A stretch of 64,000 bases of DNA from Eledone cirrhosa (lineage: Eukaryota), in assembly GCA_964016885.1 (NCBI GenBank), contig OZ024746.1:59024001-59088000 (forward strand), written 5' to 3'. Position 1 is the first letter of the stretch; the number at the start of each line of letters is the position of its first letter. Below are positions 5,416-53,979 of the stretch, one piece after another. The translations under genes and the position numbers were made by a program. The notes under the pieces were generated by a model, which had not been told where the DNA came from, ran no database searches, and saw only the letters and a list, made by a program, of their open reading frames with translations.

Positions 5416-5480
5416 TATTTCATTATACATATTTCAAGGACACCAAGTTAAATTATGGTGTGCTTTCATCAGATAAAATA
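5416..5480 (-). ncRNA. Type I hammerhead ribozyme (minimal stem III)
   Basis: Reverse complement of the 5573-5637 motif, with an intact core. Confidence 0.8.
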
Positions 5481-6154: not shown

Positions 6155-6739
6155 GAGTATGTGTGTGTATTTATTTATATATGTCTCTTTCTCATTCTAA
6201 TACCATTATACATTTTAAAGGATTATAAATAAAACGAGTAAATCAAACAATGTTGGAATTCCTTTTATTAATATAATCTTCTATACACAATCATACACAC
6301 CCGTGTATATTTATTTATATATATATATATATAACTTATTAATAACACATTTAAAATGATAAATACAAAATTAGAAACTGGTTTCTCGCTCTCACATAAC
6401 TAATTACATAAATGTATTTATGAGTTTTATATCGAATAATTATAATAATATTCAATTCATTTGCAAGCAAACATTTTCATTACGTTATGTTTTTTAAGTG
6501 ATCGCCGTCATCCGTTTGTTCTAACAGTGGGATAGAGAAACAATCTACAATGTTGTTGCAGGGTTATCGCCCTTTGTCAAGATTGTTTATCGCTCTCAGA
6601 TACTCGCTTGAATTGTTGAAAATGTATACAGGCAATATTTATTAGAATGCTGTTAAAGTGGAAATACATTATTTGGGGACATCCTGCATATTTAAAATGT
6701 TATATTAATCTTTATTACTTAGGGGATGTTTGTAATTAA

Positions 6740-7545: not shown

Positions 7546-7623
<78 letters not shown>

Positions 7624-7689
7624 TTGCAAGGTTTTTGATATGAAATCATGTGTCGAAACAGATATTGTTATACTTGGGGAGGGTCATAT

Positions 7690-7785
7690 TATTGTAATAA
7701 TATTTTTGTAATAATATTGTAATAATATTATAATAATATTGTAATAATATTGTAATAATATTATAATAATATTGTAATAATATTG
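7690..7785. repeat. 11-bp minisatellite (taataatattg)n
   Basis: Direct tandem units visible. Confidence 0.9.
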
Positions 7786-8353: not shown

Positions 8354-8584
8354 GTATATATAATGGCGGTACCCCTACATGACCCGTAGACTGTCGACTG
8401 GAATACGTAATAGAGTAATATATATATATATGTATATATATAATTAAAAGTTTAACAAGGTTCAATGAATTCATCAATGAATAAAGTTTCACAATAGATT
8501 ATAACCACTCTACAGTGAGGTTATCTGGATTTATTAATATTACTTCAAAATATTAATAAATATAGACATTCATGTGATCAAATA

Positions 8585-8650
8585 TATTTAATTATACATA
8601 TTTCAGAGATACTGAGCTATTTCAACAGTACGTCCTCATCAGATAAAATA
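8585..8650 (-). ncRNA. Type I hammerhead ribozyme
   Basis: Minus strand: tattttat CTGATGA ggacgtactg-loop-cagtatctct GAAA tatgta TA attaaata. Confidence 0.8.
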
Positions 8651-8704: not shown

Positions 8705-8770
8705 TATTTTATCTGATGAGGACGTACTGTTGAAATAGCTCAGTATCTCTGATATATGTATAATAAAAAA
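8705..8770 (+). ncRNA. Hammerhead ribozyme, GAAA mutated to GATA (probably inactive)
   Basis: Same motif as the other arm but gata at 8751-8754. Confidence 0.65.
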
Positions 8771-8814
8771 TATTTGATCACATGAATGTCTATATTTATT
8801 AATATTTCGAAGTA

Positions 8815-8949
<135 letters not shown>

Positions 8950-9092
8950 TACACGGGTGTGTATGATTTTGTATAGAAGATTATATTAATAAAAGGAATT
9001 CCAACAAGGAATGCAAATTAGGCTACTCAGCCGTTAATATGCATAAGGAAAGTATATACTTTCGGACGTCCAATCATCTGGCAGGAAGGTAT

Positions 9093-9135
9093 ACGTTGCT
9101 GACGATAGCTAATAAGCTTGAAACTAGTACACCGT
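9093..9135 (+). ncRNA. Minimal type I hammerhead ribozyme
   Basis: acgttg CTGACGA tagc taataa gctt GAAA ctag TA caccgt, with palindromic loop 3 (ctag). Confidence 0.8.
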
Positions 9136-9511
9136 TCCTTTGTCAGTGTTGAACAAACGAGCAACGGTGGTTGTTAGACACTACGGCTTATTACGGGATG
9201 ATTGTTTACAAACACACCGAGCATTATTCGGTGAACCCATACGTACATATTTATATGTGTGCATGTATGTATATATATATACATACTACTGTACGTCTGT
9301 ATACATATATGTATGTACGTATACATACTTATATTTAAGTAACAGTTGTACTAAGAGTGGGAAATGAAATTTCGTTTCATTTTTTCCGTTTATCGTTTTC
9401 GGTGCACCCGGCCGATTAACCCACTCGATATGCAAATTGGGCTACTCAGCCGTTAATATGCATAAGGAAAGTATATACCTTCGGACGTTCAATCATCTGA
9501 CAGGAAGGTAT

Positions 9512-9554
9512 ACGTTGCTGACGATAGCTAATAAGCTTGAAACTAGTACAGCGT
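9512..9554 (+). ncRNA. Minimal type I hammerhead ribozyme
   Basis: acgttg CTGACGA tagc taataa gctt GAAA ctag TA cagcgt. Stem I is 6 bp including a G-U pair. Confidence 0.88.
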
Positions 9555-9863
9555 TCCTTTGTCAGTGTTGAACAAACGAGCAACGGTGGTTGCTAGACAC
9601 TACGGCTTAATACGGGATGTTTGTTTACAAACACACCGAGCATTATAATAAATGTTCGGTGAATCCATACGTACATATATATATGTGTGCATGTATGTAT
9701 ATATATATACATACTACAGTACGTCTGTATACATATATGTATGTACGTATACATACTTATATTTAAGTAACAGCCGTACTAAGAGTGGGAAATGAAATTT
9801 CGTTTCATTTTCTCCGTTTATAAATATATATATATATATATATATAAATATATATATGTATAA

Positions 9864-10770
<907 letters not shown>

Positions 10771-16315: not shown

Positions 16316-16318
16316 TCA

Positions 16319-16356
<38 letters not shown>

Positions 16357-16359
16357 TAC

Positions 16360-16905
16360 AACCCTCTACTCTGCCACTCCAATAGAAGGTATATCCTCCC
16401 TTCTGTTCTGAGAATTGACTCTCACCTACCAATCTGGTTTCTGAAAGAGTAACGAGGTCCATGCTATAGCGATTGAGTTCTCTCGACACCAAAGCAGGTC
16501 TTCTTTCAGAGCGAGTTTCACTGGATTGGGAATCAAGTAAAGTTTTTACATTCCAGCATCCAATATTCAGAGGTTTGAACCTCTTTGCAATTGCAGGATG
16601 ATGACTGGGCCCACGCTGCGGTGTCATGGGACACCTGCCGGGCCAGACCCTTTTACAATAAGTTCCAGATCCCTTACTGCCATAGACTTCAAGGTTATCA
16701 TCTGTCATCATAGAGTTTGGTGCACTTTAGGGCTACGACCATCCACACGAACTTGTAGCAGATCCTGAGCAAGCGACGCTTGGGCTTTGAAGGTTTTTTT
16801 AAGTGGAGAAAGACCTTCCACGCGACCAATCCTACTCTCTTAGCATCAAAAACACTACACGAAAACGAGAACTGGTCAACATCATCGGATGCTTCCGAAG
16901 CCGCA
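16360..16905 (-). mobile_element. RTE-type LINE 5' fragment (5'UTR + APE endonuclease N-terminus)
   Basis: LNIGCWNVKTL...RELNRYSMDLVTLSETRL..E..GGYTFYWSG are APE domain motifs typical of the RTE clade. Confidence 0.85.
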
Positions 16906-20840: not shown

Positions 20841-21543
20841 AATGTATAATTGCTAGAACAGCAGCCGTCAAAGCAGCTAAATGCTGTCAAAGATTGTGAT
20901 GGGCAAAAATGTCCCAGAGGACAGAGACGAGCAGTTAGTGGTAGACAGAGAGACAGCCCACTATGTGACTGACAGGCATATATATATATATGTTTGTGTG
21001 TGTGTGTGTGTGTGTGCGCGCACCCACACGTGCAAGTGTGTGTGAGGGTGTCTGGTCGTGCCTCTTTCTAGGTTTTTGTCTGTGTTTATGTAATCGATCA
21101 AATAAGTAATAAACTTAAAAATATATACTAGAATCGATATGATAAACTAAATAACTAAATCAATGTGGTGCTCCAGTTTGAAGACAGTAAAAGAATTAAA
21201 TAATAAAGGAATGCGTGTGTGTTGTGTTAGTGAGTGGTTGTGTATAGAGATGCCTCGAATTACGTCCTTTTACGCTGAAATGTTAAATTTGCCATTTGAT
21301 AGTGATCGATGAAATAAATTTACTGGATTTCAGTAAGTGGTGAGATCAATATATTTGACTCGACCCCTTTTAAAGCACTCTAATGACTGTAACCAGAAAA
21401 TACACCATTTTATATATATTTTTATATGTGTATATATATATATATATGTAAGTATGTATGTATACACATATTGCCGTACTAAGAGTGAGAAATGAAAGTT
21501 CGTTTCAATTTTTTCCATATATATATATGTATATATATATATG

Positions 21544-32714: not shown

Positions 32715-33372
32715 ATAATAAAGGCTTCTGATTTAGGCACAAGGTCAACAATTCCGGTGGATAACTCCAGTATATTGTTGGTACTTTATTTAATCAACCC
32801 GTTGAGGATGAAAGGCAAGGCTAATTTCGGTGGAATTTAAACCTACAATGTAAAGCCATAACTATATGCCACAAAGCATGTTGTCCGGCGCCCCAGCGGT
32901 TTTGTACTCCACCGCCCTTCAGAACGTAGTAATAACAAAACTCTAATAATAATAATAATGATTTCTAGTATAGGCACAAGGCCAGTAATTTGGGAGGAGG
33001 GGGAAGTCGATTAAATCGACCCCAGTGCATTACTCGTGCTTTATTTTATCGACCCCGTAAGGATGAAAGGCAAAGCTAACCTCGGCGGGATTTGAACTCA
33101 GATCGCAAAGAGGCGTAACCCTCTGCCGCAAAGCATATTGTCCGACGCTCTACCGACACTGCCAATCTACCGCAATAATAATAATTGTTTCATTTTTTGG
33201 CACAAGGCCAGCAATCACCCAGTACATTACTGGTACTTTATTTTATCGACCCCGTAAGGATGAAAGGCAAAGTTAACCTCGGCGGGACTTGAACTCAGAC
33301 CGTAAAGGGACGTAACTATGCTAGAAAGTATGGCGTCCAACCCTCTACCGATACTGCCAATTCACCGCCCCA
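32715..33372 (-). mobile_element. Chain of three head-to-tail SINEs
   Basis: Three units separated by (TAA)n tails. Confidence 0.9.
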
Positions 33373-33393
33373 ATGCGCAATAATAATAATAAT

Positions 33394-34748
33394 ACTGAAG
33401 CGAGGTAGGATTAATAAGATGGAAGGAATTGCATTACCAGACGGACAAGTTATGAGGGAAATTGACGACAACTTAGTCATCCTGGACACAACCCAAATGA
33501 AAGAGAAGGAAATGACAGAATTATTATCAAAGGAATATAAATGGAAACTGAAGTTAGTGTTAAAAACAACGTTAAGAGGTAAGAATCTGGCTATCAATAC
33601 ATGGGCTGTTGCAGTGCTAAGGTATAGCAGTGGTGTGATAGAATGGAGATGTGATGAACTTAAGGGGCTTGATAGATCAGAAAAATGATGACTCTACAAG
33701 GGGCTCTACAACCTAAAAGTGACATGGCCAGGTTGTATCTATCACAACATAGAAGTGGAAGAAGTCGCATTAGCTGTGAATTGTGTGTGAAGTCGGAGGA
33801 AAATAATATAGCATTGTATGTAAAGAATTCAAAGGAGAGAGTGATGGCAGGAGTAAGAAATATAAAGGCCCTAAACAGTGATGAGGCAAAGGAAAGGGGA
33901 GAATTTAAACAAGACAGACAGAATTATACATTGAATAGATGGAAGAAAAATGACGTATGGTCAATTCTCGAGTGAAATACCGAGACAGTTGACAAAGATA
34001 AGAACTGGAAATGGACTAGGAAAAGTGACTTAAAAGTTGAAACTGAGGCCTTATTTTTGCAGCGCAGGTACAAGCACTGAGAACGAATTACTGTATATCA
34101 AGTTCAATATTGACAAGTCAGTGAATTCACCACTGTGTGGTGAGAAAGGTGAGACAATAAACCACCTTATTAGTGAATGTAAGATGCTTGCACAGAAAGA
34201 GTACAAGAGAAGATACGACAATATTGCCAGATTGGTTCATTGCAATGCTGTCATAAGAGTGAAATGGTATGAACACGAAACTGAAAGGGTTGCTGAAAAC
34301 GAACACTATAGGGGCATGGCCAGCCAATGTAACAATTTTATAGTGTCTAGAAAGCCTTGCATTGTTGTCGTAGAAAAGAAGAATAATAAGGCAAGTATTT
34401 TTGATATCGCTTCACCGTGGGTCCATAGGGTGAATGAGAAGGAAAATGAGAAAGTTAAGAAGTACCAGGAGTTGAAGGGGGAAATCATGAAACTATGGAG
34501 AATCAGACACTTATAAGTTGTAATTATTCTGGTTGGTAGCAGTTAGTAAAATGTTACATGCATGGCTTGAAAAGCTAGGAATTATCATCAGGATGGGATT
34601 GGTGCTAGGAACAGCAAGGATTTTAAGGAGGGTCTTGGAAAGTTAAAGGAAAAAGAATGACCCAAAGTACGTTTCGCCATTGGCTATGGCTCGCTCTTTT
34701 GGAATAGTGTCGGTATAACATCTGCCAGAGCAAAAGCGGTACGATAGA
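33394..34748 (+). mobile_element. R4/Dong-like non-LTR retrotransposon, 5'-truncated pseudogenised copy
   Basis: AINTWAVAVLRYS, GAL.PKSD..RLYL, knuckle LCGEKGETINHLISEC, and REL endonuclease RKP(C)IVV..DIASP..EK..KYQEL. Begins and ends in (TAA)n. Confidence 0.88.
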
Positions 34749-41338: not shown

Positions 41339-41340
41339 TT

Positions 41341-41720
41341 ATATATTGGTAAAAGGAAAAGAAAATGCTGACAAATTGTTCCCAGTGAAAAATAGTTTAA
41401 TTAGGAATAAGTAAAAATTAGTAATAATATTGGTTAGTATTCAGTTTTGGCTTTAAGTTTTACCGGTTGCGCATTTCTAATGCTTTTCAAAAATAATTTT
41501 GAGATAGAGCGCCCGTGATGTTTGCTCAGATTAGAGCAAACATCACGGGTGCTCTATCTCAAAATTATTTTTGAAAAGCATTAGAAATGCGCAACCGGTA
41601 AAACTTAAAGCCAAAACTGAATACTAACCAATATTATTACTAATTTTTACTTATTCCTAATTAAACTATTTTTCACTGGGAACAATTTGTTAGCAATTTT
41701 CTTATCCTTTTACCAATATA
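41341..41720. mobile_element. Near-perfect ~185-bp-arm fold-back with a U3-A8-type HHR remnant in each arm
   Basis: Centre at ~41530. ttt TTGAAAA gcatt agaa atgc GCAA ccgg TA aaa at 41568-41603, with GAAA>GCAA in both arms. Confidence 0.8.
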
Positions 41721-41996
41721 TCATAACTTGTGTGTTACACCTCTATTCTTTTAAATATATATATATATATATATATAAGTATGTATACGTACATACATAT
41801 ATGTATACAGACGTACAGTAATATATATATATATATATACATATATATACATACATGCACATATATATATATATGTACGTATGGATTCACCGAACATTTA
41901 TTATAATGCTCGGTGTGTTTGTAAACAAACATCCCGAATTAAGCTGTACAGTGTCTAGCAACCATCGTTGCTCATTTGTTCAACACTGACAAAGGA

Positions 41997-42039
41997 ACGC
42001 TGTACTAGTTTCAAGCTTATTAGCTATCGTCAGCAACAT
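41997..42039 (-). ncRNA. Minimal type I hammerhead ribozyme
   Basis: Minus strand: atgttg CTGACGA tagc taataa gctt GAAA ctag TA cagcgt. Confidence 0.85.
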
Positions 42040-42595
42040 ATACCTTCCTACCAGATGGTTGAACGTCTGAAAGTATATACTTTCCTTATTCATATTAACG
42101 GCTGAGCAGCCTAATTTGCATATCGAGTGAGTTAATTGGCCGAGGTACCGAAAACGATAAACGGAAAAAAATGAAACGAAATTTCATTTCTCACTCTTAG
42201 TACGGCTGTTACTTAAATATAAGTATGTATACGTTTAAATATAAGTATGTATATTGTTTACAAACACACCGAGCATTATAATAAATGTTCGGTGAATCCA
42301 TACGTACATATATATATGTGTGCATGTATGTATATATATGTATATATATATATATATAAATATATACATACTACTGTACGTCTGTATACATATATGTATG
42401 TACGTATACATACTTATATTTAAGTAACAGCCGTACTAAGAGTGAGAAATGAAATTTCGTTTCATTTTTTCCGTTTATCGTTTTCGGTACCCCGGCCAAT
42501 TAACTCACTCGATATGCAAATTAGGCTGCTCAGGCGTTAATATGCATAAGGAAAGTATATACTTTCAGACGTTCAACCATCTGGCAGGAAGGTAT

Positions 42596-42638
42596 ACGTT
42601 GCTGACGATAGCTAATAAGCTTGAAACTAGTACAGCGT
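42596..42638 (+). ncRNA. Minimal type I hammerhead ribozyme
   Basis: acgttg CTGACGA tagc taataa gctt GAAA ctag TA cagcgt. Confidence 0.88.
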
Positions 42639-42795
42639 ACCTTTGTCAGTGTTGAACAAATGAGCAACGATGGTTGCTAGACACTGTACGGCTTAATTCG
42701 GGATGTTTGTTTACAAACACACCGAGCATTATAATAAATGTTCGGTGAATCCATACGTATATATATATATATATATATGTGTGCATGTATGTATA

Positions 42796-42871
<76 letters not shown>

Positions 42872-43014
42872 CTACTGTACGTCTGTATACATATATGTAT
42901 GTACGTATACATACTTATATTTAAGTAACAACCGTACTAAGAGTGAGAAATGAAATTTCGTTTCATTTTTTCCGTATATCTATATATATATATATATATA
43001 TATATACATACATA

Positions 43015-43304: not shown

Positions 43305-43340
43305 TCTTCTGATGAAGGACTAGCGTCCGAAACGTTAAGA
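43305..43340 (+). ncRNA. Minimal PLE-type hammerhead ribozyme
   Basis: tctt CTGATGA a ggac tagc gtcc GAAA cg TT aaga, with palindromic aacgtt. A truncated relative lies at 49275-49290. Confidence 0.8.
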
Positions 43341-52541: not shown

Positions 52542-53562
52542 TGTTCCTCGTGAGGAGGTTGTATCTCAGCTTCTTCGGGAGCTTCCGCCGGTCGCAGATG
52601 TTGGTCCAGGCGGCGTTGATGTGCTCCTCTATCTGCGCGGGAGTGATTCCCGTGACCTTGGAGTAGAAGTTGTCATCGTCAAGGTGTTGGAGGGCCAGGG
52701 TGTTGTAGGCCTCTCTGCTGATGACGCAGAATTCTTTTCCCTTGTCGGAGGGGAGATAGATGAGATTCTTCGATTTCGGGTTGGAGAGAGTGGTGAGTTG
52801 AGATTTGGTGAGGTTGTGTGTTGTGCGTGTGTGTGTTTGTGAAGTATATCCGAGATGGAGTGTTTTAGCCTGATGAGTTTAATGTCGAGTTCGTGGTTGG
52901 TGGGTGGTGGGTGGAGGGTGTTGTCGGGGTGGTAAGTGGGGAACTTGGGGTGGGTTGCGTGGGCGTTGTTATTTTCCGTGGCGATGTTGATGGCGGTCAC
53001 CCATTTAAGTTGGTAGGCGGCTCGACAGAAGTTGGCTTCGATGTCGAGTTTGAGTCCGTCGTCGAGTCGTTGTGAGACGATGAACTTGGGTCCGAGGCGT
53101 AGGAGTTTCAGCTCGTCGCTCGTGAGGGTGCCGGTTAGGTCGGTGACCACGTGCGTCGCATCGTTGAGGTGTGGCTCGGTGTTGGTGGATGCGGCGGCGG
53201 CGGCTGTTACATTGTTGTTTTCCACGTGGTTCTGGTCTGTCTGTTTGTTAGTGTCGCTGTTCTCGTTGTGGAGTTTAGACAAGATCCACTCGTTTTTTCT
53301 TCGTATTGGACTCTGGAGTGGTAGCACTGGTCGATTGCTTTAGTGATTTTAAGGAGCAAGTCGCCGGGTATTATTGGCAGTCGATGTGTCCGCTCTGAGA
53401 GTGTCCGCTTATGGATGTGTAATTGGCGGTTGAGATGTCTCAGGATCTGTTTGATACACGTGCGATGTATGCGGTTAGTGGTGTTTTGGAAAGCTGGTGT
53501 ACGTAGGCTTCCTGGTAAGCGGATGTTCCTGATGGTGGTGGGGATGACATCGTCAATCGAAA
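52540..53562 (-). mobile_element. Penelope-like element ORF fragment (N-terminal region to the DKG motif of RT), two frameshifts
   Basis: VVTDLTGTLTSDELKLLRLGPKF, then in the next frame NLTKSQLTTL..LIYLPSDKGKEFCVISREAY..QHLDDDNFYSKV. GC-rich and bounded by (TA)n on both sides. Confidence 0.85.
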
Positions 53563-53979
53563 ATATATATATATATATCAATAATTATACTCACTCGTTT
53601 GGTGTCTATGTATCATGCAAATAAATCGATCCAGTATTACACTACCCATAAATAAATCTAATCAGATAGAAACAACTTAAGTAATGGGGAGGTAACTGTT
53701 GCTAGAACACAAAAAATACAAAACATTAACAGATGAAAAACAACTATAACAGCAACAACAAAAACATTGTCAATTACAACAGCACAAACAACAACAACAT
53801 AAATTACAAGAAAAGTGATTTTATGTGAAAAATTTCTGTTTAGAATTAATCGCTGTTTTATTACCTTCATAGAAATCTGACTATTAAACAGTGTCTTGTT
53901 ACTTGAGGTGAGTACGATAAGTGTTGAATGGTTGATTTCACTGGTCTTTATATGTATATATGTATATATATGTGTTTTG

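Follow-up and report, generated by a model that had tools for sequence, protein, structure and literature searches.

A dispersed hammerhead repeat of Eledone cirrhosa with PLE-type insertion ends: a probable non-LTR retrozyme family

Introduction

In the genome of Eledone cirrhosa, a tandem repeat that carries one hammerhead ribozyme (HHR) motif in each of its units raises the question of what kind of element it represents, and of how such an element might be copied and inserted. The repeat lies within a window of 64,000 nucleotides (assembly GCA_964016885.1, contig OZ024746.1, positions 59,024,001 to 59,088,000 of the forward strand; positions below count from the first letter of that stretch), in a host genome of 3.0 Gb and 1,796 contigs that is both AT-rich and microsatellite-rich. 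A first-pass annotation of the sequence had proposed that the repeat was a non-LTR retrozyme and a source of circular RNA. According to excerpts of a 2020 review (PMC7761336), metazoan retrozymes seem to be without a promoter or a motif that names their mobiliser, and Penelope-like elements (PLEs) were proposed for the latter role from co-occurrence; part of that text thus leaves two points open, the mobiliser and the promoter, and the tail signature and candidate promoter described below address both.

Results

The tandem copy and its hammerhead motifs

Tandem Repeats Finder reported a repeat at 9011-9821 with a period of 419, 1.9 copies and 94% matches, in agreement with the direct repeats (CTGACGA at 9099 and 9518) that had first drawn attention to the locus. 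Alignment of the two units (Table 1) gives 375 identical columns, and a 9-nt deletion in unit 1 sets them 419 nt apart at the HHR but 428 nt apart over the 3' half. The earlier statement that the repeat lacks an open reading frame (ORF) also held, the longest ATG ORF consisting of 53 low-complexity codons; retrozymes likewise encode no protein. The unit length of approximately 419 nt given at that time is correct for this copy and particular to it, because 30 monomers from other loci measure 420-433 nt. The cut-to-cut monomers (n=31, 419-433 nt, the window copy included) fall within the retrozyme unit range of 150-450 bp, and their GC content of 0.37-0.38 lies below the retrozyme ceiling of 50%.

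The copy begins exactly at an octamer and contains two HHRs, each with the palindromic loop CTAG and GAAA at its core, so that one HHR per unit, as annotated, was recovered; the predicted cut positions likewise coincide with those first assigned. In helix I, a run of 6 bp is followed by an internal loop, then by 4 bp and one more helix; helix II comprises 4 bp on a U.U base; and helix III comprises one or two pairs and the palindrome ACUAGU, for which the 6-bp duplex that would pair two motifs as a dimer is computed at -4.8 kcal/mol. As predicted from its letters, the motif is a canonical type I hammerhead, with a 6-bp helix I, a 4-bp helix II and a short palindromic helix III. In the definition contained in part of PMC4209133, this layout of helices I and III is that of the canonical metazoan type I form and not of the minimal form, so the label 'minimal HHR' in the first-pass annotation was mistaken. 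A minimal PLE-type HHR, which has neither helix III with loop 3 nor an extended helix I, is ruled out by the presence of both.

The motif combines two weak features, namely a helix III of 1-2 bp and a U.U base to helix II. Rfam returned no hammerhead match in the window, either at gathering thresholds or at E values up to 10; the matches at E up to 10 were all sub-threshold and were led by miRNA models on an AT-rich hairpin. In a comparison of 12 sequences, both partners have changed in 6 of the 17 base pairs, and 92% of cells are paired, against at most 49% in a sliding control; those sequences represent two or three independent lineage events, not twelve, and all of the related lineages were found through HHR-core patterns. 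In a sister family, B, the commonest core, with 52 of 65 counts (overlapping loci kept in), combines G10.1-C11.1 with a GUC site, and in two further lineages, D and E, the palindrome ACAUGU replaces ACUAGU and dimer pairing is kept. Within family A, to which the window copy belongs, selection on the HHR core was not detected, the catalytic columns containing a mean of 2.5% non-major letters versus a median of 1.5%.

When folded as a circle, the predicted monomer of the window copy reaches -118.7 kcal/mol with 68% of its bases paired (z -5.5, 25 shuffles), corresponding to the highly self-paired predicted circle of retrozymes, and three monomers treated in the same manner gave z scores of -5.5 to -7.0 (25 shuffles each), part of which stems from an AT-rich internal palindrome. 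Release of a 419-nt monomer from this copy appears possible on paper. The copy may be a fossil, because its two units differ by 3.7% in their core and helix I of the first hammerhead contains a mismatch, and, being aged, it may well be inactive, by analogy with a study of frogs (10.64898/2026.07.22.740005) in which one of nine predicted retrozyme dimers cleaved in vitro, and in which the link to PLEs came from pLTR homology.

Table 1. Features of the repeat locus and of a second insertion in the window
Feature	Position	Strand	Details
3' end and tail of a coding PLE family (family of L109/L113)	8950..9005	-	89% identity over 75 nt including flanking microsatellite
Unit 1	9011..9429	+	419 nt, 9-nt deletion; its start is the 5' truncation point of this copy, not a family boundary
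Octamer ATGCAAAT	9011..9018	+	again at 9430-9437; extended motif also in two U6 genes
Candidate snRNA-type proximal promoter	9027..9058	+	TCAG box at 9027 and TATATA at 9053 (again at 9446 and 9472)
Type I hammerhead 1 (predicted)	9086..9140	+	core 9099, helix II 9107-9118, predicted cut after 9129; U.U at 10.1-11.1, palindrome ACTAGT 9123-9128, helix I mismatch at 9132
Predicted 419-nt monomer	9130..9548	+	circular fold computed
Tail between fixed 3' ends	9335..9393	+	S near 9334-9337, T at 9393; unit 2 counterparts near 9762-9765 and at 9821
Unit 2	9430..9821	+	terminates at the T end, the distal of the two fixed 3' ends of the family; (TA)n comes next
Type I hammerhead 2 (predicted)	9505..9559	+	helix I intact, predicted cut after 9548
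(TA)n tract 3' of the retrozyme copy	9822..9975		inferred target
Second insertion, same family	41770..42980		head-to-head inverted arms: S end (minus) and T end (plus)

A dispersed family and its relatives

A genome-wide count of copies, which the first-pass annotation had proposed as a check, returned 9,756 exact matches to the 32-nt HHR core, dispersed and in tandem; the reversed control returned none, and the core is therefore far beyond chance. A second 25-nt motif gave 10,912 exact matches genome-wide and none in its control. The copies are spread over many contigs, mostly as stretches of 0.5-2 units, and the window locus is one 5'-truncated copy (1.9 units) of this dispersed non-coding family. 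The second insertion in the window carries HHR cores at 42033 (-) and 42602 (+), and a short diverged T-end fragment of the retrozyme, 76% identical, lies at 21437-21522 (+).

Fifteen diagnostic sites resolve 45 haplotypes among 76 loci. Units within a single insertion agree at those sites in 876 of 974 comparisons in tandem and 600 of 659 in inverted arrangement, whereas agreement between loci is 59%. Some arrays are very young, as at L153, where the array is 7.6 units long and nine segments differ by 0.3%; four other arrays (L026, L161, L182 and L183) are mixed. An array of more than 10 kb at C3:72261961-72272254 (L254-L267) has a spacing of about 428 bp and a shared 1-nt deletion.

Sister family B has a 470-nt unit that is 60% identical to that of family A, with 254 of 424 columns matching in an alignment that spans the entire monomer (1,834 first-look candidates, of which the 40 scored are 98-100% alike). 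A pattern combining the octamer with the HHR core, built to exclude A and B, produced 222 matches and none in its control, and the 30 matches fetched (L333-L362) hold six more lineages, C-H. The eight related lineages, A-H, share a layout in which an octamer, a TCAG-like box and a TATA box closely precede the HHR. In family C, loop III has four bases, and a second palindromic segment, headed by an octamer, is found close by.

Insertion ends

The ends of insertions were surveyed at 99 de-duplicated loci on contig C1, chosen by either motif and comprising 158 arms; 30 best-hit loci, arms touching a locus edge, matches to the AT palindrome only, and local duplicates (L185 and half of L162) were left out. 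With q denoting the position within 9011-9429, on which scale the predicted cut follows q119, 128 of the 158 arms end at one of two sites, 57 at S (q316-329) and 71 at T (q370-385), and 30 end elsewhere. The S and T ends lie 56-59 nt apart and mostly run into (TA)n; a target-site duplication of more than 4 bp, a retrozyme criterion, is unreadable in such sequence. A hairpin in the intervening tail (9359-9387) is kept in family B, where the tail measures approximately 70 nt. In run X1, whose type is unrecorded and which may derive from the sample used for the assembly, 56 loose ends pass at 9393 into (AT)n; runs X4-X6 contain a few contigs of low depth, to which no weight is given for range or expression.

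Inverted arms joined head to head form 48 pairs, of which 29 combine an S end with a T end, one combines two T ends, none combines two S ends, and 18 have an unclassed end. That 29 of 30 classed pairs should be S+T has a probability of about 3e-8 if arms chose freely. An earlier, overlapping set contained 29 S+T pairs among 50 and none alike, and in family B (21 loci) 16 of 18 pairs are S+T, again with none alike. At the window copy, the two ends brought together are both of T type and belong to different families.

PLE-mobilised insertions are characterised by a tail bounded by two fixed 3' ends, by 5' truncation, by partial tandems and by inverted arms, all of which this family shows. In PMC11167929 the PLE tail was described as the stretch between two internal sites at which reverse transcription starts, and was called unique to PLEs; both target strands were cut and extended, and the protein was predicted to be a dimer. 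Portions of PMC8557442 similarly describe PLE partial tandems, inverted 5'-truncated arms, a tail that is often present on one end, and a bias towards (TA)n. S and T are accordingly inferred to be the sites at which reverse transcription of the present family would start.

The same distribution bears on the proposal that the repeat is a minisatellite spread by duplication at the DNA level, with the HHR as a passive leftover. Local duplication after insertion does occur: the A-B-A-B array at L158 reflects a later 842-bp duplication, identity at a lag of 842 being perfect over about 900 nt and not over the first 180, and similar events are visible in L162 and L223/L224. Nevertheless, the copies are dispersed over many contigs and mostly span 0.5-2 units, their 3' ends are fixed while their 5' ends are ragged, and inverted arms occur; this distribution largely refutes the minisatellite reading and leaves it exceedingly improbable. 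A dimeric circle, considered as the origin of the L158 array, was rejected in favour of that later duplication.

The template for insertion

After 5'-end exposure was corrected for the way in which loci had been chosen, no pile-up of 5' ends was found at the cut or at the predicted start of transcription among the loci of the 99-locus census. Two arms begin within 4 nt of the cut site versus 2.3 expected (approximately 70 at risk), and three begin at the predicted start versus 3.7 expected (approximately 112 at risk); five arms at octamer +63 to +69, against 3.2 expected, do not form a cluster. Because 5' ends show no excess at the cut and 48% of arms exceed one unit, cut linear monomers are not the main template. 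The absence of a stop at the cut fits a circular template or a long read-through template, and the haplotype shared within insertions fits a circle and also long uncut transcripts of uniform arrays. In PMC11167929, cutting by the HHR was unneeded for insertion in vitro, uncut RNA was the main template, and no reads ended at the cut site; as uncut RNA served as the main template in that system, long read-through transcripts of arrays account for the missing stop no less well than circles.

These observations bear on the possibility that the family is a non-autonomous PLE derivative copied from uncut multimeric array transcripts, its HHR being a relic or protein-aided and no circles being made. 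Long arrays that could act as sources are present (7.6 units in L153 and more than 10 kb on C3), although shorter source loci would give a pile-up of 5' ends at the predicted start, where none is seen. Mutation of the HHR left insertion unchanged in the in vitro system of PMC11167929, no reads there ended at the cut site, and the core columns of family A display no excess conservation; in contrast, both the stems and the helix III palindrome have been kept by compensatory change across families that are 60% identical. The four mixed arrays are unexplained by one circle, and the cleavage of one in nine frog dimers (10.64898/2026.07.22.740005) also speaks for uncut transcripts, yet the many source haplotypes (45 among 76 loci) each gave largely uniform insertions. 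Copying from uncut arrays alone is considered rather unlikely.

Coding PLEs and the search for a partner

The genome holds 10,597 GIY-YIG candidates, of which 150 were scored and 62 PLE-protein loci were examined. Their ORFs reach 1,096 amino acids; all five of those scanned match RVT_1 and four of the five match GIY-YIG at E <0.01. Several contain a CxxxxCxxC linker and, following a description in part of PMC8557442, can be read as Neptune type from their predicted proteins. A BLAST comparison of the retrozyme unit with the 62 PLE-protein loci revealed no homologous end, and only independent insertions (L067, L097 and L118) and a fragment of family B (L116). Likewise, eight PLE 3' regions contained no homology to the unit, most PLE copies lying outside that sample.

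Such sampling leaves some room for the suggestion that the units derive by truncation from the pLTRs of an ordinary coding PLE with full-length copies outside the sample, and the PLE insertion anatomy would agree with it. The units themselves, nonetheless, join seamlessly head to tail with no ORF between them, rather than enclosing the RT and GIY-YIG ORF that lies between the repeats of an autonomous PLE; and no unit is continuous with a PLE ORF among the PLE-protein loci, the fetched copies and lineages C-H, none of the 30 fetched loci of those lineages having a PLE ORF on the same strand. PLE ORFs that do neighbour units are on the other strand, or are separated from them by (TA)n and a 3' end of their own. 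Furthermore, a genome-wide pattern for copies that retain the T-end 16-mer and diverge 13-18 nt beyond it gave 49 matches, each of which, judged by its letters, is the unit altered by an indel or a truncation, and the 30 that were fetched showed no PLE protein match. An origin as ordinary pLTRs is thus judged very unlikely. The first-pass annotation had set an ordinary pLTR and an independent element as the only alternatives, and that division proved too sharp, because the element is without a coding body and yet inserts with PLE anatomy, so that it appears to be a non-autonomous PLE passenger. Its classification as a non-LTR retrozyme agrees with the DNA evidence, namely the non-coding nature, the single type I HHR per unit, the dispersed partial tandems and the lack, among the loci examined, of any unit continuous with a PLE ORF.

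Joins between retrozymes and PLEs were nevertheless found. In the window copy the PLE 3' end (56 nt) and the retrozyme's 5' end meet head to head across a 5-nt gap, and among 78 free 5' ends such joins to PLE 3' arms occur at the window, L053, L188, L226 (twice) and L227. They involve three different PLE families, and can be explained both by co-integration and by later deletion between clustered insertions. In a composite insertion at L226:5307-6807, an S-type and a T-type arm from a single PLE family are cut at an identical base and flank two retrozyme arms, which are joined to them 5' to 5'.

Several other PLE-related sequences lie within the window. A broken N-terminal part of a PLE ORF is located at 52558-53584 (-) (9,453 first-look candidates genome-wide), and its relatives at L103 and L108 have open frames of 859-881 amino acids. 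The segments at 41339-41777, 6192-6353 and 7597-7690 are 3' ends of three coding PLE families, the first being an inverted pair with a tail on one arm only that adjoins the second retrozyme insertion. HHR-like cores of other families occur at 43309 (+), 24580 (-) and 16272 (+) and in inverted pairs at 5472/5581 and 8642/8713; both pairs are head to head (8522-8650 with 8705-8833 is 92% complementary), and these cores are probably 3' ends of other PLE-type elements. Probable LINE fragments, with weak zf-RVT/endonuclease matches below Pfam cut-offs, were noted at 33293-34516 (+) and 16316-16726 (-).

A candidate promoter

The octamer at q1 is the best-kept block outside the HHR between families A and B, and its extended form is found at -76/-77 of the two top-scoring U6 genes of this genome, with a TATA box at -30; a U6 array carries a one-base variant. 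Eight U1/U2 promoters lack the octamer and contain TCAGT at -56 to -58, followed near -31 by a TATA-like box. The octamer of U6 at -77 is unusually close, and TCAGT is placed at -57 in U1/U2; a distal motif of CTCCCTT type near -250 to -285 is shared by the U1, U2 and U6 promoters at L303-L321 and L363-L381. In the retrozyme lineages TCAG or CCAG lies at octamer +16 and TATA at +40 to +45, which is 2-7 nt closer than in U6.

With a two-part U1/U2 matrix, six of eight lineages had this site among the best-scoring 2.6% of about 420 offsets, the site ranking first of about 420 in family A and failing in B and E; the anchored test was set post hoc and the lineages are related. An unanchored, ungapped 37-column matrix from the eight U1/U2 promoters scored the monomers at -2 to -9, against 5-26 for true promoters, and no better than 300 shuffles, and a control set of other octamer sites was uninformative as it held family members. 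Given an offset picked with the data in view, the relatedness of the lineages and the failure of the unanchored test, an snRNA-type promoter in these lineages is a candidate and a lead. A PSE in the tail, the first guess, was dropped.

From the spacing in the U1/U2 genes, transcription would start near 9084 (q74) and 9503, at the 5' arm of helix I and 46 nt before the cut. A T6 run hinders Pol III read-through, and its occurrence in the unit for that reason favours Pol II. Part of PMC2220036 describes newt satellite 2 as driven by an internal snRNA-type Pol II promoter.

Discussion

A model for mobility

Given its copy number, its lack of an ORF, its covarying HHR stems, its fixed 3' ends and their S+T pairing, the absence of a stop at the cut and the haplotype shared within insertions, all of which are read directly from the DNA, this dispersed type I HHR repeat with PLE insertion ends is likely to be a non-LTR retrozyme, the RNA of which would be self-cut into monomers of unit length, would likely close into circles, and would likely be copied into (TA)n sites by a protein that a coding PLE supplies. 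The individual steps of that scheme differ in their strength. Transcription of each unit from its own octamer/TCAG/TATA module, starting near 9084 and about 46 nt before the cut, is slightly favoured. Cleavage by the HHRs, aided by pairing of two ACUAGU palindromes, and closure of the monomer by a host ligase appear quite probable for the family, and less so for the aged copy in the window. The involvement of a PLE protein, probably as a dimer, is highly probable, while the particular arrangement in which it would nick (TA)n and prime cDNA at S and at T from two DNA ends is an evenly balanced proposal. Finally, a circle that allows cDNAs to run through the cut junction, and hence to produce copies of more than one unit, is the somewhat better-favoured template.

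A broader and much more speculative possibility is that at least eight retrozyme lineages have captured a host snRNA promoter and make self-cut RNA circles unaided. A PLE dimer would then insert these, priming from both ends of the target on a single circle, with one subunit per fixed site. Those lineages might borrow several unrelated PLE families and not one cognate partner, a suggestion that derives from the head-to-head joins with three PLE families.

The insertion ends described here carry the tail signature that was called unique to PLEs (PMC11167929) and provide exact predicted start sites for reverse transcription, and the pairing of S with T is near-strict in two families. Young copies in 99% identical arrays coexist with long PLE ORFs in one genome, making direct tests of the circle as template, and of the role of hammerheads in PLEs, possible.

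Comparison with known systems

The literature searched contained no report of cephalopod retrozymes, or of tails or inverted arms in retrozymes, subscription papers and the supplement of PMC7229834 being outside its reach. Metazoan non-LTR retrozymes from coral, mussel, axolotl and frog (described in part of PMC7229834 and in 10.64898/2026.07.22.740005) share with the present family a non-coding tandem unit of a few hundred bases, a GC content below 50%, one type I HHR, thousands of copies, a well self-paired predicted circle and the presence of PLEs in the genome. The sections of PMC7229834 that deal with axolotl provide a precedent for each weak feature of the HHR: HHR_Amex1 has the same helix III of one pair and a palindromic tetraloop, and HHR_Amex2 has the same U.U base to helix II. 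In axolotl those features occur in separate motifs, whereas here both occur in one; the axolotl monomers cleaved at 6% and 22%, and dimers much better. RNA has been demonstrated for the metazoan retrozymes, while that of the present family is predicted from its DNA; conversely, the former seem, according to PMC7761336, to be without a mobiliser motif or promoter, while the latter displays a PLE tail, inverted arms and a candidate promoter.

PLEs with a C-terminal GIY-YIG domain (Penelope/Poseidon, Neptune, and the PAc element of PMC11167929) likewise have a tail bounded by two fixed 3' ends; their copies are truncated at the 5' end, form partial tandems and inverted arms, lie in AT-rich targets and carry an HHR upstream of the ends. 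The present family differs from them in having no ORF, a tail of 56-59 nt (approximately 70 nt in family B) rather than 30-40 nt, and a canonical rather than a minimal HHR, and shares no sequence homology with the PLE ends sampled here. Newt satellite 2, as presented in part of PMC6155905, is likewise a tandem HHR repeat with a weak palindromic helix III and an extended helix I; the family studied here, in contrast, has a promoter that is only predicted and consists mostly of dispersed short copies. Non-autonomous Chlamys PLEs such as MRC1 (from excerpts of PMC8557442) are also non-coding PLE passengers with pLTRs and head-to-tail multicopy insertions. Their 3' ends resemble those of an autonomous partner and they mostly lack an HHR, whereas here an HHR is present and no homologous partner was found among the PLE loci sampled.

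Taken together, these comparisons suggest a new retrozyme family of a known class, the DNA footprints of which point to mobilisation by PLEs and to a candidate promoter. The class having been known already, the family extends and sharpens the existing model and does not overturn it.
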